Source: Naegleria gruberi
Taxonomy: Eukaryota
DNA length: 64,000 nt
Assembly: GCA_000004985.1 (NCBI GenBank)
Contig: GG738926.1
Reading direction: 5' to 3' (one strand)
A program made the translations under genes and the position numbers. How positions within the stretch are numbered: position 1 is the stretch's first letter; the number at the start of each line of letters is the position of its first letter. Positions 5,901-59,941 of the stretch are shown in pieces. The notes beneath the pieces were generated by a model. That model had not been told where the DNA came from. It made no database searches and was given only the letters and a program-made list of their open reading frames with translations.

Positions 5901-8900
5901 ACAATGTCCTACACTGGCTTTGAAGAAGTGCCAATCGTGTTGCTCAATACTGAAAAACAATACTATGGAAACAAACTCACAATTACTGCTTCTTTTATTG
6001 ACCCGATGGTTGAATATTTGTTGAGTAGTAATAGTATTAGTGTTTCATGGTTTTGTTTTAGAGGTACTTCAAAGACTGGTCCTTTTTCTGCCTATGACTG
6101 TACTTCTCAAACTAAGGAATTAATCATTGGAGAATCTAACCTTATTGAAGGATACCATCAATTCCAATTCACAGCCACTTTGACAAATTCAAAAATCACA
6201 TCCGTTACCAAAACAGCAATTGTGCAAGTTGTTAAAACAAATATTCCAGATATTCTCTTTGACTCTGTTCCTCCAGTTTATCCATCATCAAGAAACTTGG
6301 TATTGAATGCAGTTATTTCTTCTTCCACGCAAATCGGTAGCGTTGTGTGGCAAGTAACCAAGGGTAATTTACTCAATGAGAATATTCTTAGTCAATCAAG
6401 TACTCTCTCATTGGATGGATACAATATCAAATCAACTTTGGTTATTGACAAGTCTTATTTATTACAAGGTGATTCTTATACATTCACTGTTACTGCTTCC
6501 AATGGTATTGGCTCTTCAACTGCAGCTGTTTCAACTGTTATTGATGTAGCTCCAAGAATTGCTTGTCAAGCCTATGACGCAGCCATAACCAATTCCGTTA
6601 TCTATGCTTACTCTAGTGATGTGGTAATTGATTGTGCTTCACTCTCTGACTACTCAATTGCTTCCTATCATGTCGATATATATGCCAACTCAACCAGGGT
6701 AATGACAGTATCTAAAACAATGAAAAAGACTTTTATTACAAAGGTACCATACGGTCCAAATGGAAATATCAGACTGGATGTACGAGCTGTAAACAAGATT
6801 GGATCTATTTCATCTGCTTCTATTGATCTCAAGGTTTCTCTTAAAAATACTGATAACACCCTCGCTGGAAGAATTGGATTTGCTAGTTCTGAATATGAAA
6901 GCAACAAAGCAAGCTTTACAAGATTAGAAAGTGTTGTTACTATGCATTCTTTATTGTTACTTATTATTCAACAAAATTCTGTTAGTGAATTTGCCAGTAT
7001 AGACTCTACAGCCAAAACTACTCTCACCACCTTGATAACCAATATGTTAACTACTTTGAGTGGTCTGAAGAGTATTAGTTACAACGCAGATGACAAATTA
7101 GCTCCTGTTTTTATTCCATTTGCAAATGATGCTTACAGGTTACTTGCTGTTATTTCTCCAACTACAGTGGCTTCCAATGCTGATCTACTCACTTGGGTTA
7201 AATTCTTCATAACGTCATTCAATGATTACAAGACATATTATAGATCTACAGTTGTACCTACTATTTACGACTCTAAACACTTGACAGAAATTGATTCCTT
7301 GATAGGTATTGGCGCAAAGTATATTAGTGATAGTAGTTTCAGTCCATTATATAAGGAAACAGCTATTATTTCCAAATTGATTACTGACGTTACCAATTCC
7401 ACAACAACGACAACCTCCACCATCGTGGATTCCAGTGGTACGGAGACAAGATTTGATATTGTTGACAGAATTCAACAACTGAATGCCAAGACAATTACAT
7501 TCGCTAATTATCCTTCAATTTCTATTTCCTTCCCATCAGATTTCTACTCACAACTCGGTGTTGAAAATTCAGGATCAGGAGTAACCCTCACTTCTGCTGT
7601 TTCAACCTCTAAATATTCCCAACTAGTAAGCCCTTCTGTTGATATTTCTCTTTCTACCTCTTCAGACGCTGTTATTTCTGTGAGTGGATTGCAAGGAAAT
7701 TTGATTCAAATCAATTTTGGCACCTTATCACAACCTAAAGCTAACTTTACCAGTTACAATTATACTTGCAGATTCTTGAATACTACCTCATCACAATGGA
7801 GTCAGTCAGGAGTGTCAAGCTCTATTTCCATTTTGTCAGATGATGGCCAAACTGTCACCTTTTCTCTTTCATGTTTAACTTCTCACTTGACTTCTTTCGG
7901 AGTTGTTTCTGCTATCATCCCTCCAACATCACAATCTAAAACAGTAACAACAGATAATACTGGTGTTGTTGTTGGTGCTGTTTTGGGTACACTCTTGCCA
8001 TTGATTTTGATAGCTGTTATTGTTGTCGTAGTGGTGATAATTGTAATTATTTTATACAAGAGAAAGAAATCTCTCGACTCATCACAAGTTCAAAATGTTG
8101 AATTGGTCAATAAGAATGTTTCAAGTGTTCATATTAGTGACTTCCCTTCAGAAGAAAGCACTCACTTTAAGCAATTGGTTAGTGTATCTTCTGGATCTAC
8201 TAATTCTGATCCACTTGCAAGATATGCTGATATGGTAAAGATTGGACAAGGCGCATTCGGAAGTGTGTTCAAAGGTGTTGATACAAAGCAAGCAGGAAAG
8301 TTGAAGGCCATCAAGGTTATTAGATTTAATTCTGTTGGTGAATTGAACAATATGCTCAAAGAAGGAACTATGCTCATGAACATTGATCACCCACATATTC
8401 TAAAAGTCAACGAGTTTATTATTGACAAAGATAACATTCTCTGTATTGACACAGATTTCTGCGAAGATGGTGATTTGACCAAGCTTACTCTTTCTGCAGA
8501 GCCAATCCCAGAACCAATCATCAAACAAGTAATTTATCAAATGTGTTCTGCTTTGGCCTTTATTCACAACAAGCTCAAGATTATTCACAGAGATGTTAAA
8601 CCACACAACATTTTCTTGAAAGAATTGACAGATTTTTCAGTTCAAACAGTTTTGGCTGACTTTGGTCTTGCTAAACAAGATCAAAACAACAGCATGAATT
8701 CATATGCTGGTACACCACTTTGTAAGTTTTTATTTTTAATTATTTAATTAACAACCAATTAAATAGACATGAGTCCAGAACTTGCCCTTGGAGGTAAATA
8801 TAACTATAATACTGACACTTGGTCTCTTGGTGTTGTAGCCTATCAATTAATGACTAAAGATATCACAACTGCTCTAAGTCATTTGTGCTTAACAGGAGAT

Positions 8901-22887: not shown

Positions 22888-25800
22888 ATGAAACTATTAA
22901 ACTTGTTTATTTTTCTAATATTATTTCCCACACTAATTTATTCATCATCCGCAGAGGATACGAGAAATTATTCCAGCTCATCCATTAATAATTCGAATAA
23001 TTTTCCTTCATCCTCTTTGAAAACTAATGTTGTTAACTATTCGAAAGGAATTAATTTACAAATAATTTATTACATTAATTCTGATGATGTCAAATATCAG
23101 AATACAACTTGTCAAGACGAAAGTCATCCATGTTCAGATATGAACCAAGTGATCTTGGCAGCAAATACGAAACTATTCGAAATATTTCATGAAAATGATC
23201 AAACTAAATTAGATTCTTTTACAATGATTGTCATGATTGATTCGAAATTGGAATGTAACAAACTGCTCTTTGATTTTTCAAATTATACGAAACGATTCGA
23301 AATGAGGTGGAAAGGATACGAAAATGGTTTATTCTCTGCTTGTCTAAATAGTTTAGATGAAAATTCCATTTTAGATGCTTTCACTGTTGAGAATGGAAAG
23401 ATTTCAGGCGAATTGAATAATAGATTAGGTATCAAGAATTTGGAAATTCGAAACTGTCACGATGGTGGAATGATTTACTTTTATACTAAAATAGAAAATT
23501 TGCTGATTGCTGACAGTTTCTTTCATGAAGATACTGAAATAACTGAGATTACAAATGTACGAGTGGAAAATACGCAATTGGATGATTTTGAAATTGTTTC
23601 GAATGGAGCAAGTGTTGAAATTTCAAATTCTAAAATTCAAGGAATTGTTGATTTGCAGAATTTTAAATCATTTTCTATTCGAAACTCAATTTGGAAAAAT
23701 AACCGAGTTCATGAGGATTATTCATCAACATTTAATTTAGGACAAGATGTTTCATTTGATAATGTAACAACTAATGCTAAAATTGTGTTTATTTCAATCA
23801 AGTCAATCAAGATGAATGGGCTAATTGTACACAATTATGGAAACGGATATTTCTTGTATCAAATGATACGAGTTTCTCATTTCTATCTAAGCAACAGTTC
23901 GTTTGTGGGAAATTTCGTGCTCAACAACTATTTACTCTCCTTGCAAATAGTTGAATCTATACAAATTGAAAATTGTACAGTTTCTAATAATGTTGGAGGT
24001 TTCATCATGGTAACAGATGCTACTTTGATAATGGGACAGGTGAATATACGAATTAGTAAGAGTGTATTTCAATCCAACGAGATGCTGTCAGATATTGCTC
24101 TAATTGACATTGTGGATCAAACAAGAGAGATGTATTTTATCACAGTTGACCATTGTAAATTTTTGGAAAATACAGGAGAATCCACTTTACACATTGATGG
24201 AGGACTTGCCCAAATTTCCAATTCAGACTTCTACTTTAATATTGCAAACGAACATGGTACTGCATACTTGAATTGCTATGTTACAATTTCAAACTCTAAA
24301 TTCATCGCTAATCAAGCCAAGTTAGGAGGAGCCATTTACATTGGTCCTGCTGGAAATATTGATGCATCTCAAACAATTGATTTTACTTGTGATAATAATT
24401 GGGCAACCTACGCTGGAGGATGCATTTATTCAGAAAATTTGGATTTTTCAAAATTGAAACGCATGAATGGAACTAATATTGCTAAATATTATGGAAATGA
24501 TGTGGCCACACCTATTGTGAGTCTGGATGCTACATTTGATGAGGTAGATTCTAATGGAAATATTGAGGTTTACCCAGGTCAAGCATTCCAAATTAATTTT
24601 TTCCCAAGAGACAAGTTCAATCAGAGCACCTCTTATTTATTGAATCAATATTTGTTTATCAATTCAGAAAAAGGTCATTTTACAATCTCTCAGAATTTTT
24701 TAGATGGAATCCATTCTATTCCAGTAGTTTTGCAAATATTTCCAATTGACGACTACAACCCATCATTGCCACCACTTGTAATATTGATTTCTTCAAAAAT
24801 TGAAATCAAAATTCCTGTAAATATTCTCCCATGTCCAGATAGTTCTTTCCTGAAATTATCTCAAAATGGACATTACTGTGAACAAATTCCATTAGCAGCG
24901 ATTCTGTCATCTGTAATTTTGGGAATTATTTTGATAACCATTATATTGGCAGCATTAATAGTGATAGCTAGGAAATTATTGAAATTGAGAAAACAGGAAC
25001 GTGCTGAAAAGAAAATGGAGCTATTGTTCAAAGATAAGGAATTTATATTCGAAACAGAACAAGCACCTCTATTACTTTCTAATACCATCAACAGTAGTGA
25101 TTCAGGTGAAAGTAGATCAATAATTGGAAACAGGCAACAATACATCATTCCAATTTCTGAAATTAATATTTTGAAAAGAATAGGAGAAGGTGGAATGGGT
25201 GTCGTATATCACGCGAAGTGGAATCGAACTGATGTTGCCATCAAACAATTGAAAACAGATTCCAATGATGAAGAATTCGAAAATGAAGCAATTTTAATGA
25301 GCTCACTTCGACATCCATGTATTGTGAGCTGTTTTGGAGTTTCTCTGACAACCAATGGAAAATATATGATTGTAGAATATTTGGAAAATGGAAGTCTAGA
25401 AAAGGCAATTTATAATTCAAAGATGGGAAGAGCAATTTTGAGATTTGAAACCAAGTTGAAAATATTAACTGATGTTGCCAAAGGATTAGTTTATTTACAT
25501 TCAATCAAACCTCATAGAATTATTCATAGGTATGTTTACTACTTTTATTGGAATAGATATTAATTATGGAATAGAGATTTGAAACCAGGAAATTTATTAC
25601 TCGATAAGAATATGAATGCAAAAGTTGGGGATTTTGGATTGAGCAAAATTGTTTCGAATAATTCTGCAACAATGACAGCAAATGTAGGAACTTTACTTTA
25701 CATGGTAAGTCTAGATAATTTCACAAATTGAATTAAATTGTTATCAATTTAGGCGCCAGTAAGTAATTTCGAAATTTAATTTATTAAAATTTCGAATATT

Positions 25801-28769: not shown

Positions 28770-31700
28770 ATGAAACCAAACACCAATGTGGATCATTATC
28801 AAAAAAAGGACCACATCAAGTCAATCACAACAAGAATGAAGAAAGTTTGTTTATCCAAGTCAACTTCATCCTCTACCTCTGCCAAACTCAATTTTGCTAT
28901 TCAAAAGCATAAGAAGAATGGTAATTCATCTTCAATCTTTAACAGATCTACTCCAATTTCCTTCTCCAACACTGACTATATTCAACAATTATATCGTCAA
29001 TATGGAACCACAAGAATCTCCTTGAAGGAATTTGAAAAGTTGCTTGTGGCCAACAGAGGTGAAATTGCCACGAGAATTTTACGTTCTGCCCACGAAATTG
29101 GTTGCAGAACTGTTTCGATTTATGCAAAACAAGATGCTTCCTCTGTGCATCGTTACAAAGCAGATGGTAAGTTGTTTTATTTGAATATGTTATTATAATA
29201 ATTGATCGTATTTTGTAATAATATTTGATGAAATAATTGTAAAAATTCCGATCAATAGAAAGTTACTTGATCGGAAAGGACAAGGAATTAGGTCCAGTTG
29301 AAGCTTACTTGAGCATTGATGAGATTATTAAAATTGCCAAGGAGAATGGAGTTGATGCCATTCACCCTGGTTATGGATTTCTTTCAGAGAGAGCTGATTT
29401 TGCACGTGCTTGTTCTGAAAATGGTATTCAATTCATTGGTCCAGTAAGTATTTCATGTGATTGCAATAATATATTTAACAAATTGTTGGTAGACTGCTGA
29501 TGTTGTTGAATCTTTTGGTGACAAGACAAGAGCTAGAAAGGTTGCTACTGATATTGGAATTCCTGTTGTTCCTGGAACTCCAACTGTAAGTATTCTATAC
29601 TTCTTTAATCCTTAATCGATTGTAAATTATTCAAATAACTTATGTTCATTCCTATTTATAATGAACTTGTCCAATTGACCAAAATATTAAGGCAGTAACA
29701 AGTATTGCAGAAGCCAAAACCTTCTGCTCCCAAATTTCCTTCCCAGTCATTTTGAAAGCTGCCATGGGAGGTGGTGGAAGAGGTATGAGAGTTGTTTCCA
29801 AAATGGAAGATTTAGAAGAAGCATTCCAAAGAGCTTCCTCTGAAGCTTTGAATGCTTTTGGTTCTTCAGCAATTTTCATTGAAAAGTTTGTTGAAAAGCC
29901 ACGTCACATTGAGGTTCAAATCTTGGCCGATAAGTTTGGAAATGTTGTTCACTTGTACGAAAGAGATTGTTCAGTGCAAAGAAGACATCAAAAAGTTGTT
30001 GAAATTGCTCCAGCTCCACATTTGAATCCTCAAGTGAGAGAAAAGATTTTGGCTGATGCTGTTCGTCTTGCTCGCCACGTCAAGTATCAAAATGCAGGAA
30101 CATTTGAGTTTTTAGTCGATTCTAATGGAAAGGATTATTACTTTATTGAAGTCAATCCACGTCTTCAAGTCGAACACACTGTTACTGAAGAAATTACAGG
30201 TGTTGACATTGTCCGTTCTCAAATCTTAATTGCCGAAGGAAAGAGTTTGGACGAAATTGGTTTAAAACAAGAAAGCATTTCAGTCAGAGGTTCTGCCATT
30301 CAATGTAGAGTTACCACTGAAGATCCATTGAATGGATTCCAACCAGATACTGGTGTATTGGAAGCTTTCAGAACTGGTGAAGGTATGGGTATTCGTTTGG
30401 ATATTGGTTCTGGTTATGTTGGATCAAAGGTTTGTTTTTTTAACACTTTACAAAATATTTAATTCTTCTCGTTCTTTCACATCAATAGATTACACCATTC
30501 TATGATTCGCTCCTTGTCAAGGTCATTGGTAAAGGTCTCACTCATGAAGAAGCTTCCAACAAATTGAGACGTGCCTTGGCTGAATTCAGAATTCGTGGTG
30601 TCAAACACAATATTCCATTCTTGCAAAAGGTCTTATCTCATGAAAAGTTCTTAAATGGTTATGTTGACACCTCATTCATTGATACTAACCCAGAACTCTT
30701 CCAATTCTCATCCAGTGGTAACAGAGCTCAAAAGCTCTTATCATTCTTGGCTGAAAATGTTGTCAATGGACCAACTACATTACTCGTCACTGATTTGGAA
30801 CCATCCAAGAAGAATCCAACTGTTCCAAAGACACCTACTGGTGCTCCTCCACGTGGCTGGAAACAAGTTCTCGATGAACAAGGTCCTGAAGCATTTGCAA
30901 AGGCCATTCGTGATAGAAGTGAATTGCTCATTACTGACACAACCATGAGAGATGCTCACCAAAGTTTATTGGCAACTCGTGTCAGAACCAGAGATTTAAT
31001 GTCTATTGCTCCATATACTGCTCACGCCATGTCAGATTGTCTTTCATTGGAAATGGGAGGTGGTGCAACCTTTGATGTTTGTTTGAACTTTTTGAGAGAA
31101 TGTCCATTCGAAAGATTGGCTAAGTTGAGAGAAGCCATTCCTAACATTCCATTCCAAATGTTATTCAGAGGTGCAAATGCTGTTGGTTACACTGCTTATC
31201 CAGATAATGTTGTTTACAAATATTGTAAGAAAACAGTTGAACATGGTATGGACATTTTCAGAATCTTTGACTCATTGAACTATGTTCCAAATATGGAGTT
31301 GGGTATTGATGCTGTTGGTAGCGCTGGTGGCGTTATTGAAGCAGCCATTAGTTATACAGGAGATGTCAGTGATCCTAAAAAGTCCAAGTATAATTTGGAA
31401 TATTATTTGAAAGTTGCCAGATCACTTGTTGAAAAGGGAGTTCACATTTTGTGTATCAAAGACATGGCTGGTTTGTTGAGACCTAGTGCAGCAACCTTAT
31501 TGATTGGTGCTTTGAGAAAGGAATTCCCACACATTCCAATTCATCTTCACACTCACGATACTGCAGGAACTGGTGTTGCTACTTTATTGGCAGCTGCTGA
31601 AGCTGGTGCTGATATTGTTGACGCTGCTATTGATAGCATGTCAGGATTGACTAGTCAACCTAGTTTGGGAGCTATTGTTGCTTCATTGAAGAACACTCCA

Positions 31701-32845
31701 TTGGATACTAAATTGGATTTGGGTAAACTCTCCAAAGTTTCTGATTATTGGGAACAAGCCAGAGGATTGTATGCTCCATTCGAATGTACTACTACTTTGC
31801 GTTCTGGTTCTAGTGATGTTTATGTCCATGAAATTCCAGGAGGTCAATATACCAATTTGAATGCTCAAGTTTATTCCATCAATGGTTCACTTGGTAAGTT
31901 TAATTTTTTTACTTTCTAATAGCTAATTATTGTTTTTTTAAATATGAATATAATTTCAGATGGATTCCCTAAGGTTAAGGAATCATATGAAATTGCCAAT
32001 AGATTATTGGGAGATATCATCAAGGTCACACCAAGTAGTAAGGTTGTCGGTGATTTGGCTCAATTCATGGTTCAAAACAACTTGGCTGAAAAGGATGTTA
32101 TTGAAAAGGCCGATCAATTGTCATTCCCTAACTCTGTTCTCGAATATTTTGAAGTAAATTGGGTATTCCATATGGTGGTTTCCCAGAACCTTTGAGAACC
32201 AAGGTTATGAGAGGAAAACCATCCATTGAAGGAAGACCAGGTGCTAGCATGCCAGATTTTGACTTTGTCAAGTTGAAGGACAAGTTGAAGAAGGATTTGG
32301 ATTATGATGCCTCTGAAGAAGATTTGATTTCTTCATCTCTCTTCCCAAAGGTATTTGAGGAATATGTTCAATTCAAACAACAATATGGTGAGGTCACTAA
32401 TTTGGGAACTCGTCAATACTTTAAGGGAATTAAAGTTGGTGAAGAAACTGAAGTTGAATTAGAAAAGGGTAAAGTCTTACATATCAAATTGAAGGCCATT
32501 GGAGAAGTTGGAAGTGATGGTAAGAGAGAAGTTTTCTTTGAAGTAAATGGTCAATCACGTCTTGTTTTGGTTCAAGATAAGAAACTCTCCAAGACTATTC
32601 AAATCAGATCAAAGGCCAATAAGAAGGATCCAAATGAAATTGGAGCACCAATGCCAGGTAAAGTTATTGACATTAAAGTCAAGGAAGGTGATAAGGTCAA
32701 GAAGGGAGATACTTTATTGGTCCAAAGTGCCATGAAGATGGAAACTCAAGTCAAGTGTAACTTTGATGGTATTATCAAATCACTTGGTGTTAAGGTTGGT
32801 GATGAAGTTCAAGGTGGAGATTTGTTATGTATTGTTTCTCAATAA
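28770..32845 (+). CDS. Pyruvate carboxylase (biotin carboxylase + carboxyltransferase + biotinyl domains), 7 coding segments
   Basis: Exons are 28770..29166, 29259..29443, 29493..29585, 29692..30429, 30489..31893 and 31960..about 32153, then a frame-shifted continuation of about 32155..32845. The introns all start GTAAGT, or GTTTGT at 30430. It opens with an N-terminal mitochondrial-type presequence. The motifs are [89 protein letters not shown] and AMKMET (biotin attachment). There is a 1-nt frame discontinuity at 32151..32161 (see findings). Confidence 0.85.
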
Positions 32846-32862
32846 ATTATTATTATCTTTCG

Positions 32863-34275
32863 TTAAAATTGGCTTGACTGGAGCAAATTTGTCTTACATC
32901 GACTTGATATTTCAGAATACATTTCAGAATACCAACTTTCTGGCAGGGCACCTTGGAGAGCCATTTTGTTCATCAGTTCGGTATCATCCAAATATTTCAA
33001 ATTTCCCAATCCAAATAATTGTTCTTTTCGTTGATTGAATTCTTGTTGTGAGAAACGCCACATGAAACCCTTCTCCCTGGCCAAGTTTACAAAGAAATAA
33101 TCGTCAATGAGTGAGGGATGGACATATCTCAGAACTGCAATGTTTTCCTGAACTAATTCTTTGACTAGCTCTAGATTAGTTTGAAGCTCTTCGGAGGCGT
33201 ATTCAATTGAGCGAGGTTGATTTTTGACAGCCTCTGTGAGGATTTCAAAGTTATTGATAATTTTTGGATAGGATTTTAGATATTTCAAAATCAAGCCATT
33301 AATGGAGGCAAATCTTAATATGAGATCAGGAGATCTCTTAACTTTTCTATGAACAAATTCGAATAATCTGATATCCTTTCGAATAACATATTCTATAATA
33401 TCCAAATCCCTTTTAATGAATCCAGGAGCAACTCTGAAAGCTTGAGGATTGACCATTATCAACCTACGCATAAATCTTCCACTATTTCTGAGTTTCTTTG
33501 AAATACTTGGCACTAAACCAGGAGACAACACACAAGCCATGTGTATAATTTCTCTATCTTCTGAAAATTCAGATAAAATAATTTCCAAAAATGTTTTACA
33601 CGACCCAATCAATTGTGTGTAATTTTCCATGATTTTCAGAATGAGATCTCTATTATCCTCAATGAAAAATTCAACAGGTATATATGAAATAGCCTTTGGA
33701 TATTGTCTCAATAGTTCCATTACAATATCTGGATCGAAGGAGAAAGGTTTCGGCAGTGAGAAATAATTAATGGCATCATGGCAGACCAATTGTAAAGCAT
33801 CCAATCTCTTAATGGACTTGTTTTTGAGAGGTTTCACTGTAATGGGACGATCCATAAATATCTTTTCAAGGTTAATTTCATCAGTGATAATTTGAAATTG
33901 TTGAATGGCAGGTGAATTTCTAAACAATTTACTGACAGCTCGCTGGATTTCAGGACTGAGTGCATAATTATATGTAAAATAGTCATGAGTAGTGAAAAAC
34001 TTGGCCAGGAATGTAAAACTCTTCGAATACTCAATTGGAATGTAATCATAATCTCTCGACATGTCCTTCCAAAATTTTCTGGGAAGAGAAAACTTCTCTC
34101 GGAGCCAACTAAATTGTTCCGAATACTTTTCCTGACAAAAATCTATAAGTATAACAACTGTAGAATAATCAGTGTTATTCCCAACCGATGCCGATGAAGA
34201 ATATTTGGTAAATTTGGTCGACGGTTGGAATTCGTTTTTTTCGAGTTGATTTTCTGCTGTTCGCTTTTTGTGCAT
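32863..34275 (-). CDS. Repeat protein with DUF4116-like repeats (about 470 aa)
   Basis: The real ATG is at 34273-34275 (the track ORF starts at an upstream TTG). The recurrent motif ..A(V/I)(K/S)..P..I.Y(A/I)S.EL(Q/R)..(L/R)E(L/I)V..(L/A)V.. (e.g. AVKNQPRSIEYASEELQTNLELVKELVQENIAVLRYVHPSL) resembles DUF4116 repeats. This assignment is from memory of that family. Confidence 0.55.
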   Translation of the reverse strand: MHKKRTAENQLEKNEFQPSTKFTKYSSSASVGNNTDYSTVVILIDFCQEKYSEQFSWLREKFSLPRKFWKDMSRDYDYIPIEYSKSFTFLAKFFTTHDYFTYNYALSPEIQRAVSKLFRNSPAIQQFQIITDEINLEKIFMDRPITVKPLKNKSIKRLDALQLVCHDAINYFSLPKPFSFDPDIVMELLRQYPKAISYIPVEFFIEDNRDLILKIMENYTQLIGSCKTFLEIILSEFSEDREIIHMACVLSPGLVPSISKKLRNSGRFMRRLIMVNPQAFRVAPGFIKRDLDIIEYVIRKDIRLFEFVHRKVKRSPDLILRFASINGLILKYLKSYPKIINNFEILTEAVKNQPRSIEYASEELQTNLELVKELVQENIAVLRYVHPSLIDDYFFVNLAREKGFMWRFSQQEFNQRKEQLFGLGNLKYLDDTELMNKMALQGALPESWYSEMYSEISSRCKTNLLQSSQF

Positions 34276-34444
34276 TTTTTTGGTTTTTTTTGGAATTTTG
34301 TTTTGTTTGAAGGTTTGCAGAAAATTTTGCAAAACTCAAATTGTCAATAATCAAATGAATTAATGAAGAAATAATTGATTTTAAAATCATGGAGTTGTAG
34401 ATATTTGTGTAACTTAAAGATTGAATGCAAAAAATCTTGGTGGT

Positions 34445-34897
34445 TTATTGCTTGGTATTGAGTAATGCAACCATGAATGTCCAAGCAACTTTTGTGGCCA
34501 CAGTCAACCCATTAGTGCCAAAGAAATACCACAAAATCAGCCCAAGAATTGAACAATAGAGAATAATTCTCCAAACAACAAATCCAACCATTTTAAAAAA
34601 CAATCTTCTCATCAAACTAACTATTGGCTCAATAACAATTTTGGCAGATCTCAAAAACTTGAATGTCAACCTAGTGTTGATGTTTTCCATTGCATTCTTT
34701 GCATTTTCTTTTTGAGCTGGTTCTGAGAATCGACGTAAGCTAGAGGAAAATTGATAGTGTTGAGGCAATGAACTGAATTTTGTAAAGGAAATCAACTTTT
34801 TGGATGAAATCAAACCAATCAAAGATGATTTTTGATTGTGGGAAGCAAATCTTGACCGTGTGAATAAAGAACGACTTGGTTTAAAGTGTGAAAGCAT
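34445..34897 (-). CDS. Small protein with a mitochondrial-type presequence and a C-terminal double-TM hairpin (about 150 aa); paralog of 35103..35588
   Basis: The real ATG is at 34895-34897 (MLSHFKPSRSLFTRSRFAS..). The C-terminus reads ..FFKMVGFVVWRIILYCSILGLILWYFFGTNGLTVATKVAWTFMVALL. Confidence 0.5.
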   Translation of the reverse strand: MLSHFKPSRSLFTRSRFASHNQKSSLIGLISSKKLISFTKFSSLPQHYQFSSSLRRFSEPAQKENAKNAMENINTRLTFKFLRSAKIVIEPIVSLMRRLFFKMVGFVVWRIILYCSILGLILWYFFGTNGLTVATKVAWTFMVALLNTKQ

Positions 34898-35102
34898 TTT
34901 TTTGATTCTTGTTTTTCTGGATCTTTTAAATACAGAGCTCAATCAAATAGAAGCAAATTGATTGAATTTTACAAAAAACTTGCTTTCCAGGAGTTTTTAA
35001 AGGAATAGAAATTTATCTTTACAGGAATGATCACAGCTCTCAACATTTTGTCCACATAAGCTGATGAAAGAAGGAAACAACCACAAAAATTGATTGGAAA
35101 CT

Positions 35103-35588
35103 TTATTTACTTTCCTTTTCATTCTTGGCATCACCAGATGCAGTGAAAATGGCCACAATAAACACCCATGCCAATGTCAATGCCGTCGTCACACCAGAAC
35201 TTCCAAAATAAAACCAAACAATGCAAAGAATTGGCACCACAAATATCAACAATCTCCACAATATCATTGAGGCCATTTCCTCCAAGAATTCTCCAATAAA
35301 TTCCATAACATTTCTAATGAATGATTTCTTTTCCTCTCGAGGCACAGCAGCATCCTTATTTTCATCAACATTGGTTGGTTTTTCAGCTGCCTGATTTCTC
35401 CTTATAATTGATGAAGAAAATTGACGATTCGGATTGATTAATGATTGAATATTTGCCAATCTTTTAAAAATTGATTTAAATTGCTGCTGATGATGATTAT
35501 AATGACATAATCTCATGGAAGCCGAAGCAGTAACAGAGGATGAAGATAACAATGATGATGGAAATTTAGTGGTGAGCTTTCGCAACAT
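35103..35588 (-). CDS. Small protein with a mitochondrial-type presequence and a C-terminal double-TM hairpin (161 aa); paralog of 34445..34897
   Basis: Real ATG at 35586-35588 (MLRKLTTKFPSSLLSSSS..). The C-terminus ..EFIGEFLEEMASMILWRLLIFVVPILCIVWFYFGSSGVTTALTLAWVFIVAIF is clearly homologous to the neighbouring gene. Confidence 0.55.
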   Translation of the reverse strand: MLRKLTTKFPSSLLSSSSVTASASMRLCHYNHHQQQFKSIFKRLANIQSLINPNRQFSSSIIRRNQAAEKPTNVDENKDAAVPREEKKSFIRNVMEFIGEFLEEMASMILWRLLIFVVPILCIVWFYFGSSGVTTALTLAWVFIVAIFTASGDAKNEKESK

Positions 35589-36002
35589 TTTTTTTTATTA
35601 ATAATTTTCTCTGATTTTTGATATTTCCAATTGAAATCAAATAAAAGCGAGCTTTGTTATTGGAACTTGTTTTAACGAAGCAATTCAATCAATAAAGTTG
35701 GGAATTGCAAAGTTAAAATGTAACCAATCAATTTCCTTTGAAAAATTGCTCCACTTTTTACTGGAATTGTAGTTCACATTTCACAATGATATGAATATTT
35801 TACAATAAGAGTTACCAGTATGCTGCAGAGAACACAATATTAATTATTGCTACATTTACAATTTTAAATGGTGGGTAAAAGGAAATTTGTTTCGCTGTTT
35901 CATCATTCAATTGTCAAGGAAATATCATTTGTTGTGTAACAATCTCATAATAATATTGCCAATATGACCACAGCCAACAAATAGCATTTCCAATAACAAA
36001 AA

Positions 36003-36569
36003 ATGTCCAAAGTTGCTTTTACCATTGTCCTTGCCGATCAAAAAGCTGGCTACGCCAATGAAAACGTTGCTGGTAACTTGTTCAGTGAGCATGGCTTTAC
36101 CAGTGCAGGCTATTACGACACTTTGCTAATTTCACAAAATAACATTCAACAATTAATGATGAATGCCATTACAAGAAAGATGGAGCAAGTATTCATCTAT
36201 TTTTATGGACCATCCAATGGATTAACCTTGCCATTACTCAATAATCCACCTCTGGATGTTCAATTCTTTGAACAATTATTTACTCAATTCCCAAAAATCA
36301 AATTTACCATCATTTTGGACACTCATGATGGTTCAAAGGAAATTTTAGAGTATTTCACACAAAATAAGGCCAATATTCCAGCTTTATTTACCATTTTGGG
36401 AACCAATACACATGTTAAAAAACCAGGTTTTCTTCAAACATTTGCTGAAGAATTGAACAAACTCAAAACTCCACACGAAAAGAGAAAGGAAGCATTCAAT
36501 ATTTTCAGGCAAGTGACAAAAGGAGAGGTTGTTTCCAATCATGATGGACATTTCCTTGCAGACAAATAA
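36003..36569 (+). CDS. Hypothetical protein, 188 aa
   Basis: A clean ORF with a real ATG. I recognise no domain. Confidence 0.45.
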   Translation: MSKVAFTIVLADQKAGYANENVAGNLFSEHGFTSAGYYDTLLISQNNIQQLMMNAITRKMEQVFIYFYGPSNGLTLPLLNNPPLDVQFFEQLFTQFPKIKFTIILDTHDGSKEILEYFTQNKANIPALFTILGTNTHVKKPGFLQTFAEELNKLKTPHEKRKEAFNIFRQVTKGEVVSNHDGHFLADK

Positions 36570-36631
36570 ACAAGTGAATTTTCTTGTGCAAAACTCTGGT
36601 AATAAAATCTTTGGATGGCTCGCCACGTTTA

Positions 36632-36702
36632 CCGTCTCGGGAGGAATCGAACCTCCGTCAATGGATTCAAAGTCCACTATGCTACCATTACACCACGAGA
36701 CG
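36632..36702 (-). tRNA. tRNA-Gln (anticodon TTG)
   Basis: The reverse complement is CGTCTCG-TG-GTGTAATGGTAGCAT-AGTGGA-CT-TTG-AA-TCCAT-TGAC-GGAGGTTCGATTCCTCC-CGAGACG-G. The 7-bp acceptor stem pairs perfectly, the T-arm GGTTCGATTCC is canonical, and the sequence is close to metazoan tRNA-Gln-TTG. It sits about 60 bp downstream of the preceding gene. Confidence 0.85.
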
Positions 36703-37403
36703 AGCACATTAATTTGAGAACCTTAATGGATATTGAGGAATCAAAACAAAGTTTTCGTTGAATTCAACAACACACACATTGATGAGGGATTGACAGCTTT
36801 ATCGGATATGATGTGGATGGAATGTTGGTTGTACTTTTCCGGTAGAAGGAATTAATTATTCTTGAAGGATATTGTTAATACGGTGGTTGTCGCTTCTTGT
36901 TGAACGTAACTGGAGTGTTTAAATAATGTTGTTTTTCAAAAGATGAATCACACTCATCCACTAATTATTGTTTTGTTACCATCATCATTAAAATTCATCT
37001 CGATGCATTAACGATATTTTTTAAAATATTAAAAAAATCTTCACAATACGTCCACATATTTATTATTAATATCATCTTTGTTGTATCATCATGTAACAGA
37101 TCTACAGAAAAATTAAGGAAGAGGGATTAGAATTTTGAGAGATTCGCTATGGGTCAATCATCATGAACAGAATCTTTTGGCTCATTCGGATTTCCAACAT
37201 CAAGCATCATAGCTTTGCCTCAATAACAATGAAGAAAAGAGAGTACAAAAAAAGAAGTTTAAAGGTCCTTATGCCGCCTAATACCTCCGACTAACTAGGA
37301 AAATTAGAAAATACTAGATTAACTCTTCAAGCAACCTGGAACAATCAATCAAACAACCTAACAAAAAAAAAGATAATCACAGTTGACCTGCTCATCATCT
37401 AGA

Positions 37404-40400
37404 ATGCGAACAATTTTTGTGATATGCATTGCTGTTGTGGCATGGTTTATTCTTCTCTTTCTAACAAGTGAAATCCACTGTCAAACTGTCAAGTATTCAT
37501 TCACTGTTTATCAGAAGGATTTGTCAGGGCCATATTGTGCAGCAAAATCTCCAAATAGTGATGCTGTATACATGTCTGAATATAGTGGACATCGTGTGAA
37601 GAAGAAATCCTATCTAGGTCTTGTTGTTATTGCAGGAACAGGATATGAGGGTTTTAATGGTGACATTTTGGCCAAACAGGCCAAACTGGATAATCCTGGA
37701 GGTGTTCTAGAATATAACAATGAGCTGTATATTATGGACTATGGAAATAATAGAGTGAGAAAGATTAACAGTGAAGGTGTTCTGGTAACAATTGCTGGAA
37801 CTGGTACACGATCTTCAGCAGGTGACAGTAAGTTTTATTTCACACAATTGAATAGACATTCTTTCTTCTTGGCATCATAATCTCACACATTAAAGATGGT
37901 GCAGCTACTTCAGCATCTCTCAATGGACCTTGGGGTATTCATATACCAAGCAATGGAGATATATACATTACAGAATATGTCGGAAATAAGATAAGAAAGA
38001 TTAGTGCATCTGATAATAAGATTTACCTGGGTAAGTGTTTTCAAAGATTATTGTTTATTCATTCCGAAATAATTAGTGGCTGGAACAGGATCATATGATT
38101 TTTCTGGAGATGGTGGCAATGCTGTTAGTGCAAAATTGAAGAGCCCTTGGAGTGTCTTTGTAAATGCAATTGGTGAAATATTTATTGCTGATACGGATAA
38201 TGACAGAATTAGAAAAATTGCAACAAATGGAATTATAACAACTATTGCTGGCTCTGGATCGAGTACTAGTGATGGAGTTCTAGCAACTACAGCTTCTTTG
38301 AAAAAACCAACCTCTGTCTTTATTTCACCAGCAAATGAACTATTCATTGCAGGTATGTGTTTTCACAATTTCATTAATGAATTTTAACATGTCTATTAGA
38401 GGCTGATGGTGGTAGAATCAGAAAGGTCGATCTGTCAACAATGAAAATTTACACAGTTACTAGTTCACTGAATTATCCAACATTTGCATTTGTTGCTGAA
38501 AATAGTGATCTATATATTACAGAGAAAAACAACAACCAAATCAGACTTGGAACAGCTTATTGTGATAGTGGTTATCAAATTAATTCGAATGGAACTATTT
38601 GTAATCCAGTGTGTAATTCACAAATTGGAAGAGCTGGATGCAGTAATCATGGATCATGTACTAGTCCTAATACTTGTACATGTGATACTGGTTATACATT
38701 ATCTGACTGTTCTCAACCTATTTGTTATGGAAAATATGGAAGTACTGCTTGTAGTGGAGCAAATCAAGGAACTTGCTCTGCTCCAGATACTTGTCAATGT
38801 AAGAATGGATTTTCTGGAAGTGATTGTAGTGTTTATTATTGTGGAGGGGTTGTTGCAAGCTCAGCAGGTGTCTGTTCAGGTAAAGGAACATGCTCTGCTC
38901 CAGAAACTTGTTCTTGCCAAACAGATTACGTTGGATCAGTATGTCAATATCCTGTGTGTAACAGCATTCCTTCAAATAACCCAAATGTTTGCAGTGGTGG
39001 TGGTACATGTACTTCTCCAAATTCATGCCAATGCTTTACAAACTATTCAGGAACTCAATGTCAGTACACTACTTGTTCTGGAATAGATAGTACCAATTCG
39101 AATGTGTGCTCTGGTAGAGGAAGTTGTGCAAAATATAATAATTGCACATGCACAGCCAACTTCTTTGGCTCAAATTGTGAGCTCACTCAATGTTATGGAA
39201 TTATTTCAAATTCAGCTTCCACATGCGCTTCACATGGTAGATGTGATGGCTACAATAAGTGTACATGTGATTCTAATTATTTTGGATTGGACTGTAGTGT
39301 AACAAGTTGTTATGGAGTGTGGAGTAATACTTCTAGTGTTTGTACTGCACCAAACAGAGGTACTTGCAATTCCTACAATAATTGTACCTGTACAAACTCG
39401 TATTATGGAACTCAATGTCAAGATTATGATTGCTTTGGAATTAACAAATCTAATAGCTCAGTATGTTCTGGTAAAGGAGCATGTTCTGCACCAAATACTT
39501 GTTTGTGCTCTGATTCTAATTACTCTGGTTCTAATTGTGATGCAGCTGTGTGTTATGGAATTTCAGCAAATGACTCTAGAGTTTGTTCTGGATCAAGAGG
39601 TGCCTGTAACTCTCCAAACACTTGCTCATGTTTTTCAAATTATTTTGGACCTCAATGTCAATATACACAATGTTATGGTATTGACAGTTCCAACACAACT
39701 CATGTTTGTTCTGGTAGAGGTACTTGTTCTGATTTCAATAAGTGTGTTTGTAAAGATGGATACTATGGATCCAATTGTCAACTCAGCAAGTGTTTTGGAG
39801 TTTTATCAAATAGCTCAAATGTTTGCTCAGGTCACGGAACTTGTTCGGATACAGATACTTGTAATTGTGATTCTAATTATTCAGGTAAAAATTGTGATAT
39901 TACATCATGTTATGGAACCTCAAGTACAAATCCACTGGCATGTTCATCTCATGGCTTTTGCTCGTCCTATAATAATTGCACCTGTTCATCAAACTATTAC
40001 AGCCAACAATGTCAAGAGTTCAATTGTTTTGGTGTGAATAAGGCATCTACAAGTGTATGTTCTGGTCATGGTACTTGTTCAGATATTGATACATGCTCCT
40101 GTACAGGAAACTGGATTGGAGGAAATTGTAATCTCACAACCTGTAATGGTGTTTGGAATTATAATTCATCTGTTTGTTCTGGAAACGGTGTTTGCTCATC
40201 TCTGAATAATTGTACATGTAATGTAGGATATTATGGTGCTAATTGTGATTCCTTTGATTGTTTTGGATCTGTATTTACAAACGAAGGTATTTGTGCAAAC
40301 AATGGTTCTTGTACAGGTCCTGGTGTTTGTTCCTGTATTGATGGATATTCTGGATCTCGCTGCCAATATCCTATTTGTTATGGCATTAGTGGTGGTAGCT

Positions 40401-43400
40401 CAAGTGTCTGTTCTGGAAATGGACAATGTATTGATAGGAATATATGTTCGTGCAGTGCTGGATGGACTGAAAACACTTGTAATGTGACAACATGTTCTGG
40501 TAAAAGAAGTGATAATTCATTAGTTTGCAGCTCTCAAGGTTCATGTGTGGGACCAGATAATTGTTATTGTAACAAAGGTTACACTGGACCTAATTGTGAA
40601 TTTAATGTCTGTTATGGAAAGAGTCAGAATGATTCTTCAGTTTGTTTAGGCAGAGGTAAATGTTTGAAACCAGGCGAATGTACTTGTAATACTGGATTTA
40701 GAGGTACAGAATGTCAATATTATCAAATTGATTTTGATGAGAAATTGGCCACTCTCAAGCCAACCCTAACTTCAGTTCTACAATATTCATACCTTTTCAA
40801 TGGAACATGTGAAACCTTATTCGAAAGTAGTGATTTACCAATAATTGGTGAATCTCCAATATGTTTATGGGATAGTAGCAAGATGATTATTTATTTAGGT
40901 TTTGGAACTCATCTTCAAACTGGCAATTTACTAAGAGTGAAGAATAGCAACTTAGCATTCTTTGTTGATACAAGCAACTCTCTTTCCTATACTGGATCTG
41001 GTATTACGCTCAAGAAATTGATGACAAATGTTCCAACAAGTAATCCTTTACCTCTTAGACCTATTGTTGATAGCAATTTCCAATCCTACACCAATTTCTC
41101 AAGTTTAGTTTGGTCATGTATTAGTTGTTCTACAAGTTTGAATGATTACTTGAAATCTCAACAACGTGAATATCTCTACATTCCTCCATCCTACTTGAAA
41201 TCTCTATCAGCATTATATCTGCAATTAGCAGTCTCAAATTTTGCTTCTAATTCCAAAGTTGCAAGTCTTTCATTTACGTTTTCTCAATCAGCTGCTCCTA
41301 ATCTTGATTTAATTACTGACCTGAATAGTGATTCACAAATTTCTTGCACAGGATATGACTGTATTATAGAAACAGAACCAATTGGTTATGGAAACAATGC
41401 AGGATTATTCTTAGGTTCATACCCATCAATCAAATACAATGTCTACCTGTCCAGATTTTTCTACACAGACAGCAGTGGCATTTTGGGAAGTGGATCTACT
41501 ACTGGAAGTGTCTTGCTATTGGCCAAACATACACAATCCACAACTTCAAAAGATTTCTTCATTCAATATTCATTCAATGCCTATGAAAATAAGCTTCCTG
41601 TTGTTATTTCAGCAACAAATCCTGTCTTTTCTCCTTCATCTTTCATTAGATTTAAGGCAACAATCTTCAATCCAATGGTATTCGTGAAAACCGTTCAAGA
41701 TACATATTATCTTTGGAAACTCTTCAAATTTGACGAAACAGGAAAAGCTAAACAAATGAGCACTGAAATTTACATTGATCTGAATTATGATGAAGTAGTT
41801 GTACAGAGAGAATTGGAGGCAGGTACATATTTAGTGAGTCTTAATGCAGTAGCTGCTTATGGATCTACTCTCATGAATACTACCTTTACTGTATTGAACA
41901 CAACAGATAGATTGGCTTCCATCAGTTTTTCTCCTGTGCCAACAATAGTTTCAATTTCAGAAGATTTGACAATTACTGCAACAATTAATGGAACCATAAC
42001 ATCATTTGAATGGATTCAAATTTCTGGAAGGATAAAACCATTGTGCTCTTTGCAAAAAGTAACAACACAACCAAGTGAAAATATTACACAAAGCGAATTG
42101 ACTATAACCAGAGATTGTCTTTTTGAAGGTGAAATTTATATATTCAAGGTTGTTGCTAACAATTCAAATGGCATTTCGTCTTCAGCTGAAATTCAAACTC
42201 AAACAGATATCTCACCAAGTATTCATTGTGATTTTTATTCTACATCTGAAGATGGCTCTTTCGTTGCATTGGACAGCACCTTGCTAATGACATGTAGAAA
42301 TGGAGCTAAGGATACTATCAAATCTTACACAGTTGAAATTCATTATAATGGAGAAAGAAAGTTTATTGTTTCCAATACTCAAAAGAGAAACCTCTATTTT
42401 AGAATGCCTTATCTAATTGAAGGAAGCCAATTGGTTGTCAGAGGTCTCAATTTTTATAATACTGAAGTCATTTACAGAAAGAATTTAACATCAACTCTGA
42501 CTTCTACTGACAAGGTTCAACTCTTTATTGATGGTTATAATAGTATTACAACTAGTGAAACAACAAGTTATTTTGGAGCTATTAATTCTTTAAATTCTCT
42601 CTTGACATTATTTGAATACCAACAATTTGATTCGCTTGAAAATAAGAACTCTCTCCAAACTACTTTGAAATCCATGCTCAGCCTAATCTCTAATCTGAGA
42701 GCTACTGGTGTCAATGTTGATGACAAACTCACTGCTCTCTTACTTCCTCCAGTGTATAGAATTCACAAATACTTGGATAGTATTAATGGAACTAGATCAA
42801 GTGATGATTGGAGAGTTGATGATCTCCTTTCTTGGACATCTTACTTTACTGAGTCTATTCTCAACACCCTTCAATACTATTACTCAACTCAATGGAAATT
42901 CCTTATTGATCAAATTCATTTGAATGAATTGGATGAACTTATCGAACTTGGATCGAGTATGAATTCTGAAAAATTTGTTCTCGTTCAAGTTCAATATGAA
43001 TTATTAACAGATAGCTTGAATGGAGTCGCATCTAAGAAATCACAAACACAGCTCTCTAATGGTATCTTGCTAAGAGAAAAATTGGACTCTGTCGATTCAT
43101 TGAGAAGTCACATTATTAACTTGTACTATTCCAACACTAATGTTTCGATTCAATTCCCATCTGATGTTGCTGATACTTTAGCTTTTGGAGATACAACCAC
43201 AGATAATTCACTCAATTCATTTGTTAAAGTTTCCAAGACTACAAACTCAAAGATTATTGGTGTCATGACAAGTGTCAATATTCAAACTCAAAAATTCAAA
43301 GAATTGGAAATCCAAAACCTTACCACCTCCATCAATATTGCATTCACAGGCTCTCAATATCCTTCCTCCAATGTAACTTGCAAATATTACAATTCCTCAT

Positions 43401-44760
43401 CTCAAGAATGGCTCACTAATGGTGTTCAAACTTTGATTTCTTCTTCCAATAATTTGGTTACCATTTCTTGCTTGACAAATCACCTTACAACATTTGCAGT
43501 TTTCAAGAATGATATTATTTACATTCCACCTACAAATTCTACTACTAATGGCGTACAAACTTCTGATCCAGCTCTTGCAATTGCTCTTGGAATTATTCTT
43601 CCACTTTTGGCAATTGCAATAATTATTGTAATAATTATCATTGTTGTGATTCTGGTATTGAGATATAGAAAGAAGAAACTTTCCTCTGAAGTTTCCAATA
43701 CTTCAGCCATTGAACTGAGAAATGAAAATAAGAGAGGATTATTCGATACTGACATTTCAGACTTCCCTTCAGAAGCAAGTGTCTATTTCAAACATTTGAA
43801 TTCTTCCTCAATGGCTTCAACTGTTTCTTCCACATCTTCTTCTAATGATCCATTCTCTCGTTACAAGGACATGGTTAAAATTGGAGAAGGTGCTTTTGGT
43901 TCAGTCTTTAAAGTTATTGACACTAAAAATAACAATAAGGTGAAAGCCATCAAAGTTATTCGATACAAATCAGTGGAAGAATTAAACTCCATGATGAAAG
44001 AAGGAACTCAATTAATGAACATTAGCCATCCAAACATTCTCAAAGTGAATGATTTCTTTGTGGAAAAGGACAATTTACTATGTATTGACATGGATTTCTA
44101 TCCACAAGGTGATTTGAGTACCTTAATCAACCAACAGGAAGATTGTAAAGAAGTACACATCAAGCAAATTATTTATCAAATGTGTCATGCTTTGCATTTC
44201 ATTCACAATGATTTGAAATTAATTCACAGGTAAGTTTTTTAAGTTTTTTTATGGAATTTCAACAACAAATTCAATTCACAGAGATGTCAAACCTTCAAAT
44301 ATTTTCATCAAGGTATTAAACGGAAATGTCATCCATACAGTATTGGCAGACTTTGGTTTAGCAAAGGATAATAAGAATTCAGCAAGTATGAGCTTTGCTG
44401 GTACTCCACTCTGTAAGTATTTTCATAACTGTCAAAATTCATAAACATCAAATAGACATGAGCCCAGAATTGGCATTAGGAGGTAAATATTATGCCAACA
44501 CAGATGAATACTCTCTCGGAGTGACTGTCTATCAATTAATTACCAAAGACACCATGACTGCCATCAGTCACTTGTACATGTCAAAAGACGCAAAAGAAGT
44601 ACAAACTCTTACACGAAAACGTTTGAAGGAGAGTGGTGATTATTCTGATAGATTAATCGATATCTGTCTACAAATGTTGGAAAAGGATAACTGTGCACGT
44701 CCATACGCTCAAGATATTTTGGAAAATTCATACTTTAATGATATTAGAAAGATTAGATAA
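37404..44760 (+). CDS. Receptor Ser/Thr protein kinase with an NHL-repeat + about 18 tenascin-type EGF-repeat ectodomain (paralog of 2951..9125), 6 exons
   Basis: Exons are 37404..37827, 37896..38030, 38077..38352, 38400..44229, 44282..44412 and 44456..44760. The introns start GTAAGT, GTAAGT, GTATGT, GTAAGT, GTAAGT. It has a signal peptide (MRTIFVICIAVVAWFILLFLTSEIHC) and NHL repeats (YIMDYGNNRVRKINSEGV, YITEYVGNKIRKISAS, FIADTDNDRIRKIATNG). About 18 EGF repeats, a long S/T-rich ectodomain, a TM helix (LAIALGIILPLLAIAIIIVIIIIVVILVL) and a kinase domain (IGEGAFGSV, AIKVI, IHR|DVKPSN, DFGLAK, GTPL-Y-MSPE) follow. Confidence 0.8.
38600..40715. repeat. Tandem array of about 18 tenascin-type EGF repeat units (period about 93-105 nt) within the second receptor kinase
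   Basis: The reiterated motif is C(Y/F)G..S.N.S.VCSG.G.C.....C.C...Y.G..C. The spurious His/Val/Leu-rich ORFs in the track (38484..39086, 39312..40037 and others) are alternate-frame products of this repeat. Confidence 0.75.
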
Positions 44761-49916: not shown

Positions 49917-49990
49917 AGCCCGTCTAGCTCAGTCGGTAGAGCGCAAGGCTCTTAACCTTGTGGTCGTGGGTTCGACCCCCACGGTGGGCG
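49917..49990 (+). tRNA. tRNA-Lys (anticodon CTT); as I read it, 1 nt longer than the two minus-strand copies
   Basis: The body GCTCAGTCGGTAGAGC-G-CAAGG-CTCTTAA-CCTTG-TGGTC-GTGGGTTCGACCCCCAC-GGTGGGC-G is identical to the copies at 57051 and 59869. As printed, the 5' end is GCCCCGTC versus GCCCGTC in the other copies. Downstream T-runs (TTTTTT) look like a Pol III terminator. Confidence 0.8.
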
Positions 49991-50975: not shown

Positions 50976-51048
50976 GCTGGCGTAGCTCAGTCGGTAGAGC
51001 GTTGGTCTAATAAGCCATTGGTCGCCGGTTCGATCCCGTCCGTCAGCA
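50976..51048 (+). tRNA. tRNA-Ile (anticodon AAT)
   Basis: The sequence is GCTGGCG-TA-GCTCAGTCGGTAGAGC-G-TTGGT-CTAATAA-GCCAT-TGGTC-GCCGGTTCGATCCCGTC-CGTCAGC-A. The acceptor stem pairs (one G-U), the GCTAATAA anticodon loop is as in eukaryotic tRNA-Ile-AAT, and there is one mismatch each in the anticodon and T stems. A T-run follows. Confidence 0.75.
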
Positions 51049-57050: not shown

Positions 57051-57123
57051 CGCCCACCGTGGGGGTCGAACCCACGACCACAAGGTTAAGAGCCTTGCGC
57101 TCTACCGACTGAGCTAGACGGGC
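57051..57123 (-). tRNA. tRNA-Lys (anticodon CTT)
   Basis: The reverse complement is GCCCGTC-TA-GCTCAGTCGGTAGAGC-G-CAAGG-CTCTTAA-CCTTG-TGGTC-GTGGGTTCGACCCCCAC-GGTGGGC-G, 73 nt with a canonical cloverleaf. Plus-strand A-runs upstream act as its T-run terminator. Confidence 0.85.
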
Positions 57124-59868: not shown

Positions 59869-59941
59869 CGCCCACTGTGGGGGTCGAACCCACGACCACA
59901 AGGTTAAGAGCCTTGCGCTCTACCGACTGAGCTAGACGGGC
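59869..59941 (-). tRNA. tRNA-Lys (anticodon CTT)
   Basis: It is identical to the 57051 copy except for one acceptor-stem substitution (G67->A), which changes a U-G pair to U-A. It is 73 nt. Confidence 0.85.

Follow-up and report, generated by a model that had tools for sequence, protein, structure and literature searches.

Closest described systems

Mic10 (PF04418) is a small inner-membrane protein formed by a two-helix hairpin with a short loop, in which small-residue packing motifs drive oligomerisation; these motifs are of the GxGxGxG type, the loop is positively charged, and there is no long cleavable presequence. Among the small subunits of the ATP synthase Fo part, f, g, e, k and i/j each cross the membrane with a single helix, with a GxxxG motif in g and e, while subunit c combines GxGxGxG with an essential membrane carboxylate. 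TatA, to give a third example, begins with its transmembrane helix, has no presequence and continues with a charged amphipathic helix. In heteroloboseans, the small Fo subunits f, h, i/j and k are not identifiable, probably because they are too divergent (PMC10214729). Here we describe a pair of adjacent genes, A and B, in a stretch of 64,000 nucleotides (nt) of the Naegleria gruberi contig GG738926.1 (assembly GCA_000004985.1; the whole stretch is referred to as the window), which may encode two related, lineage-restricted small proteins of the mitochondrial inner membrane.

As we read A and B, they would share with Mic10 the small size, the inner-membrane location, the two-helix hairpin, the short loop and the small-residue packing motifs. 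They differ from it in a GxxxAxxxA motif, in an uncharged G(S/T)xG loop and in a soluble stretch of ~45 amino acids (aa) in front of the putative hairpin. Membership in the Mic10 family was rejected, as there was no match to PF04418 at E<=10 and GxGxGxG is absent from both proteins. With the small Fo subunits (f, g, e, k, i/j) and with subunit c, the pair would have in common a predicted mature mass of ~10-12 kDa and helix packing through small residues, and with f and g also the order of a matrix-side N-terminal part followed by C-terminal membrane helices. On inspection, however, A and B contain no GxGxGxG, no membrane carboxylate and no GxxxG. Subunits f/g/e/k/i-j were discarded as candidates for want of any Pfam match or any match to a solved ATP synthase chain, as was subunit c (PF00137), for which Pfam and PDB sequences gave no match and whose acidic residue has no equivalent in the second segments of A and B. 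The likeness to TatA/Hcf106 (PF02416) is superficial: W-(Q/R)-L-L-I opens a hydrophobic helix that ends in F-G, but the TatA helix is ~4 residues shorter, and in A and B the helix is C-terminal and followed by a second hydrophobic segment. Given this different position and the lack of a Pfam match, we regard W(R/Q)LLI...FG as a coincidence.

Two paralogous genes on the minus strand

The list of open reading frames (ORFs) places A and B head to tail on the minus strand, as the original prediction of two such genes of about 150-160 aa had it:

35103-35588, minus strand: gene A, 161 aa plus stop, residue for residue XP_002669501 / NAEGRDRAFT_75612 / D2W2J8
34445-34897, minus strand: gene B, 150 aa plus stop from the first ATG, in all residues XP_002669500 / NAEGRDRAFT_75611 / D2W2J7

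In the mechanical list the ORF of gene B extends to 34942, from an upstream TTG; position 34897 marks the first ATG. GenBank names both products 'predicted protein' (N. gruberi NEG-M) and places them on one scaffold of 174,974 bp. A literature search by the locus tags and accessions of A and B found nothing, and neither did one for the metagenome project of the environmental relative described below. An A-run precedes the ATG in both genes. At the other end, an AATAAA hexamer overlaps the TAA stop in both, at 35103-35108 (A) and 34445-34450 (B) on the minus strand (AAATAAAG, CAATAAAC), and both may have very short 3' untranslated regions.

To score codon usage we used log-odds trained on the 16 Pfam-supported ORFs of the window. 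In frame, A scored 0.24 and B 0.21, inside the range of the training genes (minimum 0.14, mean 0.31), and the five other frames were all negative. A second line of evidence comes from an environmental relative found by the exhaustive HMMER search described below, an ENA metagenome contig (ERZ929261; here L001) of 1237 bp that is ~97% identical at the DNA level and carries counterparts of both genes on one contig. Between L001 and the putative mature part of B we counted 3 non-synonymous and 4 synonymous changes (proportion of non-synonymous differences, pN, 0.014; of synonymous differences, pS, 0.067), and residues 43-161 of A gave a pN of 0.014 and a pS of 0.039. The ratio pN/pS is ~0.2-0.36 in A and B (~0.2 for mature B). 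The presequence region of B evolves faster (pN/pS 0.71) and shows in-frame deletions totalling 4 codons; indeed, the indels in B are all multiples of three. These counts are small, but they agree in indicating that the mature parts of A and B are under purifying selection.

The genes also share two sequence boxes upstream of their start codons:

35635-35648, minus strand: upstream box GCTTTTATTTGATT, 47-60 nt before the ATG of A, common to gene B
34941-34954, minus strand: upstream box GCTTCTATTTGATT, 44-57 nt before the ATG of B, common to gene A
35664-35672, minus strand: second box AAACAAGTT, ~80 nt before the ATG of A
34977-34985, minus strand: second box AAGCAAGTT, ~85 nt before the ATG of B

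Box 1 (GCTTYTATTTGATT, at ~-45 to -60) and box 2 (AARCAAGTT, at ~-80 to -88) lie at matching distances from the ATG in A and B, and the exact GCTTYTATTTGATT 14-mer occurs in the 64 kb at these two sites alone. The stretch upstream of B (~34898-35006, including box GCTTCTATTTGATT) is 100% conserved in L001. Both boxes have been kept in the two copies although the coding sequences have diverged to 29% identity, and they probably represent a retained promoter or 5'-untranslated element. Taken together, codon usage, the pN/pS values against L001 and the upstream boxes kept in both copies indicate that A and B are genuine single-exon nuclear genes of N. gruberi.

Judged by their alignment, A and B are paralogues, with a similarity far beyond chance (BLASTP E=2e-14; 28 of 97 positions identical, i.e. 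29%; 56% positives). With tblastn in the window each copy recovers the other at ~1.7e-11, and no third copy was found within the 64 kb. The homology opens at a shared QFSSS (residue 56 in A, residue 49 in B) and closes at the end of the second hydrophobic segment. The homology of the C-termini claimed in the original prediction therefore holds, whereas its length of about 40 aa has to be replaced by ~97 aa. A four-sequence alignment has 16 invariant columns, nearly all of them in the membrane part, where they comprise (numbering of A) W111, R112, I123, W125, F128, G129, G132, T134, A136, A140, W141, F143, V145 and A146. The N-termini of A and B are barely alignable, yet their composition has been kept.

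The pair had also been taken for a recent duplication, and this view had to be given up. The two copies are 29% identical and their presequences barely align, while each is ~97% identical in DNA to its L001 counterpart (pN ~0.014), which places the duplication far back relative to the L001 split. On these divergences the duplication is old, not recent, and an old duplication would mean that homologues probably exist, or existed once, in other Naegleria species.

Presequence-like N-termini

Both proteins begin with a basic region of the same length, in which an arrow marks the putative cleavage position:

35418-35588, minus strand: residues 1-57 of A, presequence-like, no Asp or Glu, net charge +8, motif R55-Q-F↓S58 (R-3 type)
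34727-34897, minus strand: residues 1-57 of B, presequence-like, no Asp or Glu, net charge +10, motif R55-R-F↓S58

The acid-free run extends over the first 68 residues in A and the first 58 in B, and both N-termini are Ser-rich. For comparison we used the 41 ATG-initiated ORFs of at least 100 aa in the window, among which A and B have the two longest acid-free N-terminal runs (median 7, next-best 33). A motif of the matrix processing peptidase type (R-2/R-3, R-x-(F/Y/L)↓(S/A)), sought in residues 16-90, is present in 5 of the 41; only A and B have it in combination with an N-terminal run of 25 aa or more that is free of acidic residues. A hydrophobic signal-peptide core is not discernible in the N-terminus of either protein.

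Our positive control consisted of 12 N-termini of N. gruberi proteins listed in the table of the mitochondrial proteome, which was obtained by mass spectrometry of mitochondrial fractions (Horvathova et al. 2021, PMC8134430). The acid-free runs of these 12 are 23-57 aa long (median 40.5), and several end in RNFSSS, RSFSTS, RSFHSS, RLFSTL, RSFGTQ or RFYSNS; the runs of A and B (58-68 aa) slightly exceed all 12. Similar to our pair are the lineage-specific 'predicted proteins' in that table, which come from the same organism, have the same long acid-free N-terminus ending in RxFS(S/T) and have no homologue or function assigned. Thus the N-termini of A and B resemble N. gruberi presequences, as far as these were compared, in composition and cleavage motif, with a putative site after F57; this is a resemblance and not a proof. 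N-termini that keep their composition while losing alignable sequence are typical of targeting peptides. The basic, presequence-like N-termini seen in the original prediction are thereby borne out.

Hydrophobic C-termini and the middle region

Hydropathy and the invariant columns delimit two hydrophobic segments (TM1 and TM2, for transmembrane) near the C-terminus of each protein:

35136-35276, minus strand: residues 105-151 of A, hydrophobic pair MASMILWRLLIFVVPILCIVWFYF and VTTALTLAWVFIVAIFTA joined by GSSG
34466-34591, minus strand: residues 103-144 of B, homologous hydrophobic pair MVGFVVWRIILYCSILGLILWYFF and LTVATKVAWTFMVALL joined by GTNG

Both proteins have a strongly hydrophobic TM1 (~105-128 in A and ~103-126 in B, with Kyte-Doolittle 19-residue means of up to 2.5 and 2.25, respectively), and TM2 of A is clearly hydrophobic as well (1.99). 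The connecting FG(S/T)xG is conserved in both copies, and the second segment has a conserved small-residue face, GxxxAxxxA (G132, A136 and A140 in A); the conserved positions of this stretch in A include W111-R112, W125, F128-G129 and G132xxxA136xxxA140-W141. The combined hydrophobic stretch measures 42-47 residues in A and B. As a single helix this would be about twice as long as the bilayer core is thick, so that it would be buried most simply in the form of a hairpin.

In front of the membrane part, the predicted mature proteins begin with a hydrophilic stretch of ~45 residues closed by an amphipathic helix, with peaks of the hydrophobic moment at residues 88-101 in A and 75-100 in B. The charge of this region is opposite in the two copies: mature A (35106-35417) has an isoelectric point (pI) of 5.5 and a net charge of -3 over the last 20 residues before TM1, mature B (34448-34726) a pI of 10.3 and a net charge of +4 over the corresponding 20 residues. 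This complementarity of the juxtamembrane helices suggests that A and B might form a heterodimer.

Search for relatives

At the default threshold, neither A nor B matched any model of Pfam or NCBIfam. Sub-threshold matches at E<=10 (Pox_E8, ABHD16_N, SDF, DUF6594, WTF and others) differed between the paralogues and were dismissed as noise due to membrane composition. Both proteins and two profiles were also run against PDB chain sequences, where at E<=10 no chain of an ATP synthase, a respiratory complex, MICOS or a translocase was retrieved; the sole PDB match, Kir3.2 (E=0.79), was rejected. An exhaustive HMMER profile search of 1.84 billion protein representatives returned three proteins, two of which are the counterparts of B and A on L001. 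The remaining one (P0003, a 523-aa repeat protein) reaches ~22 bits per repeat against A and none against B, outside the membrane part, and was discarded as an artefact of summed repeats.

A word-indexed search of 5.8 billion proteins gave no match with A and only the L001 copies with the profile; as the search with A missed the identical N. gruberi protein contained in the collection (in a cluster led by the 80-aa L001 product), this negative is not trustworthy alone. In the JGI metagenome contigs, back-translated peptides revealed no relative, and the 26 matches to a degenerate DNA pattern for W(F/Y)(F/Y)FGxxG...WxF turned out to be stop-ridden frames or unrelated bacterial membrane proteins. 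Exact-sequence contig look-ups with A, B and a neighbour likewise gave no match.

The reach of the HMMER search can be estimated. Its library holds 2.4e11 residues, for which by our own estimate a score of ~45-50 bits is needed, and the alignment of A with B itself reaches only ~53 bits. A homologue from another Naegleria species that has diverged to the same extent might therefore score no higher than this limit. Moreover, small genes are often left unannotated. By these comparisons A and B are without a detectable homologue outside the N. gruberi lineage, and the family is unplaced. This agrees with the original prediction, which could not assign the pair to a known family: Pfam, NCBIfam, PDB sequences, the 1.84 billion representatives and the JGI metagenomes all failed to supply one, and a match of the hairpin to a known ATP-synthase or MICOS subunit, named there as the result that would speak against a new family, was not obtained at E<=10 in Pfam or among PDB sequences.

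Proposed arrangement and alternative explanations

From the features described above we infer, for localisation as well as for function, that A and B are a lineage-restricted pair of small inner-membrane proteins imported by means of a presequence, possibly acting as a heterodimer; we put the probability of this reading at roughly 0.5. The proteins would be synthesised in the cytosol, and their presequences of ~57 residues, rich in Ser, Lys and Arg and free of acidic residues, would direct import through TOM/TIM23. The matrix processing peptidase would then cut after F57 (R-x-F↓S) and leave mature proteins of ~11.8 kDa (A, pI 5.5) and ~10.8 kDa (B, pI 10.3). In the inner membrane, the 42-47 hydrophobic residues at the C-terminus would form a helical hairpin whose turn consists of four residues in FG(S/T)xG. 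The G-x-x-G turn, together with the W-(F/Y)-(F/Y)-F belt, would point to the intermembrane space, W-R would be placed where the membrane meets the matrix, and both termini would remain in the matrix. The soluble stretch of ~45 residues with its terminal amphipathic helix would stay on the matrix face. The GxxxAxxxA face may pack against another helix, which could belong to the same hairpin, to another copy or to a larger complex, and the juxtamembrane helices, acidic in A and basic in B, would fit an A-B heterodimer.

The role of such a pair is a matter of pure conjecture; most likely, A and B would be lineage-specific subunits of a complex in the inner membrane, with a structural function or one in assembly. 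A role in the ATP synthase would be conceivable, given that several small Fo subunits have not been identified in heteroloboseans (PMC10214729). A more specific proposal, that A and B form a hetero- or oligomeric hairpin module serving as a heterolobosean-specific subunit of a cristae-shaping or energy-converting complex (at the Fo/dimer interface, or as a bender in the manner of Mic10), appears doubtful to us. Should it be true, the family would be older than it appears, and its homologues in other Naegleria would be unannotated or diverged beyond detection.

Several observations weigh against an imported pair of inner-membrane hairpins. The first concerns the membrane part of B. Its TM2 contains Lys and is only weakly hydrophobic, with no 19-residue window reaching 1.4 (~1.0 when estimated by hand), and B may have one true transmembrane helix followed by an interfacial helix. 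Furthermore, in two AlphaFold2 runs (with alignments of 2 and 4 sequences) a single helix continues without a break across the proposed turn. The predicted local distance difference test (pLDDT) score was ~80-89 in the membrane part (85-89 in A) and low for the N-terminal 85 residues of A; with alignments so shallow, the straight helix is weak evidence either way. Judging from hydropathy, we regard the hairpin as plausible for A and uncertain for B. Of the double-TM hairpin in the original prediction, the two hydrophobic segments thus stand (TM1 in both proteins, TM2 clearly in A), while TM2 of B is marginal and the turn was not reproduced by structure prediction.

Three further points are of the same kind. 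Neither the accessions nor the N-terminal peptides of A and B are among the 602 rows compared of the PMC8134430 table (344 further rows lie outside this comparison), in contrast to the proteins listed there, which were seen by mass spectrometry in mitochondrial fractions. The HMMER search found no homologue among the annotated proteins of other Naegleria, where a core-complex subunit should have one that can be recognised. Finally, in L001 (positions 1-220, corresponding to ~35460-35565 of the window) a 1-nt deletion in a T5A4 run shifts the frame within the presequence region of A, and the gene caller yielded just an 80-aa product for A on this contig. The deletion may either have arisen during assembly or be a true lesion; in the latter case, A would be without its N-terminus there.

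The hydrophobic pair is located at the extreme C-terminus, 4-11 residues before the stop, as in anchors that are inserted post-translationally. A and B might therefore be hairpin- or tail-anchored proteins of the endoplasmic reticulum, of lipid droplets, of the peroxisome or of the mitochondrial outer membrane, whose N-terminus is a disordered cytosolic region. The low pLDDT over the N-terminal 85 residues of A fits such disorder, and neither the literature search nor the 602 rows of PMC8134430 hold a localisation record for A or B. We nevertheless consider this explanation unlikely. Acid-free runs of 58-68 residues with net charges of +8 and +10 and with R-x-F↓S at the same position are features of a kind found in the N. 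gruberi mitochondrial proteins used as controls. In addition, in both copies the lack of acidic residues comes to a sudden end where the conserved mature region begins, and the missing signal-peptide core also speaks against this explanation.

Somewhat less probable still is that A and B are extremely diverged members of a known family rather than a new one, for instance an Fo subunit (f, h, i/j or k), a Mic10-like protein or an accessory subunit of a respiratory complex. Their architecture would suit several such subunits, with C-terminal membrane helices and a small-xxx-small motif preceded by a matrix stretch of ~45 aa and a presequence. Sequence methods often fail to reveal the homology of small membrane subunits. 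Several small Fo subunits of heteroloboseans escape identification and are probably too divergent (PMC10214729). Against it stand the Pfam models of such families and the solved chains of ATP synthases, respiratory complexes, MICOS and translocases, none of which was matched at E<=10, as well as the absence of GxGxGxG, of a membrane carboxylate and of GxxxG. Also, an ancestral subunit should show up in the other annotated Naegleria proteomes, and none was found.

That A and B are annotated but barely functional or non-functional ORFs, i.e. a young lineage-specific or decaying pair without a cellular role, would be in line with the absence of homologues outside one near-identical lineage, with the frameshift in the 5' part of A on L001 and with the lack of any expression or proteomic record in the literature search and the 602 rows of PMC8134430, but is highly improbable in view of the 16 invariant positions concentrated in the membrane part despite 29% identity, the genome-typical codon usage in the correct frame only, pN below pS in the mature parts, the in-frame indels of B and the upstream boxes kept in both copies.

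Genomic surroundings

Apart from A and B, the window is in keeping with a nuclear genome of Naegleria: its G/C content is 31-39%, and it contains the following features:

29752-32845, plus strand: pyruvate carboxylase in at least 3 ORF pieces (ATP-grasp; HMGL-like/carboxylase; PYC_OADA plus biotinyl)
32863-34332: DUF4116 protein
36003-36569, plus strand: 188-aa ORF, divergent from gene A
36631-36703 (minus strand), 49918-49990 (plus), 50976-51048 (plus), 57051-57123 (minus) and 59869-59941 (minus): five nuclear-type tRNA genes
3771-8747, 22888-25563 and 38441-44233, plus strand: ORFs of very large size that combine EGF repeats of the teneurin type with a protein kinase domain at the C-terminus

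The distribution of pyruvate carboxylase over several ORF pieces indicates short introns. This enzyme, which is itself expected to be mitochondrial, is encoded ~1.6 kb from gene B. For the 188-aa ORF on the other side we found no Pfam domain, and the search of the 5.8 billion proteins retrieved only its own N. gruberi entry, named 'predicted protein'; the A/B pair has here another orphan gene as its direct neighbour. The tRNA genes, scattered between protein genes, are one tRNA-Gln(TTG), three tRNA-Lys(CTT) and one tRNA-Ile(AAT). In the EGF-kinase ORFs, which belong to an expanded receptor-kinase family typical of Naegleria, the kinase domain is truncated where the ORF ends, and a downstream exon is likely. 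Other genes of the window encode LRR, BTB, VWA, DEAD-box and ferric-reductase proteins.

Implications

Both proteins were already deposited as 'predicted protein'. A lineage-restricted pair of small putative mitochondrial membrane proteins is nothing unusual for a protist genome, and the pair is an entry for a candidate list rather than a surprise. If A and B do reside in the inner membrane, they would extend the mitochondrial membrane proteome of heteroloboseans, which is poorly charted, by another small subunit restricted to one lineage. The pair would then also be a compact test case for targeting peptides that keep their composition and lose their sequence after a duplication.

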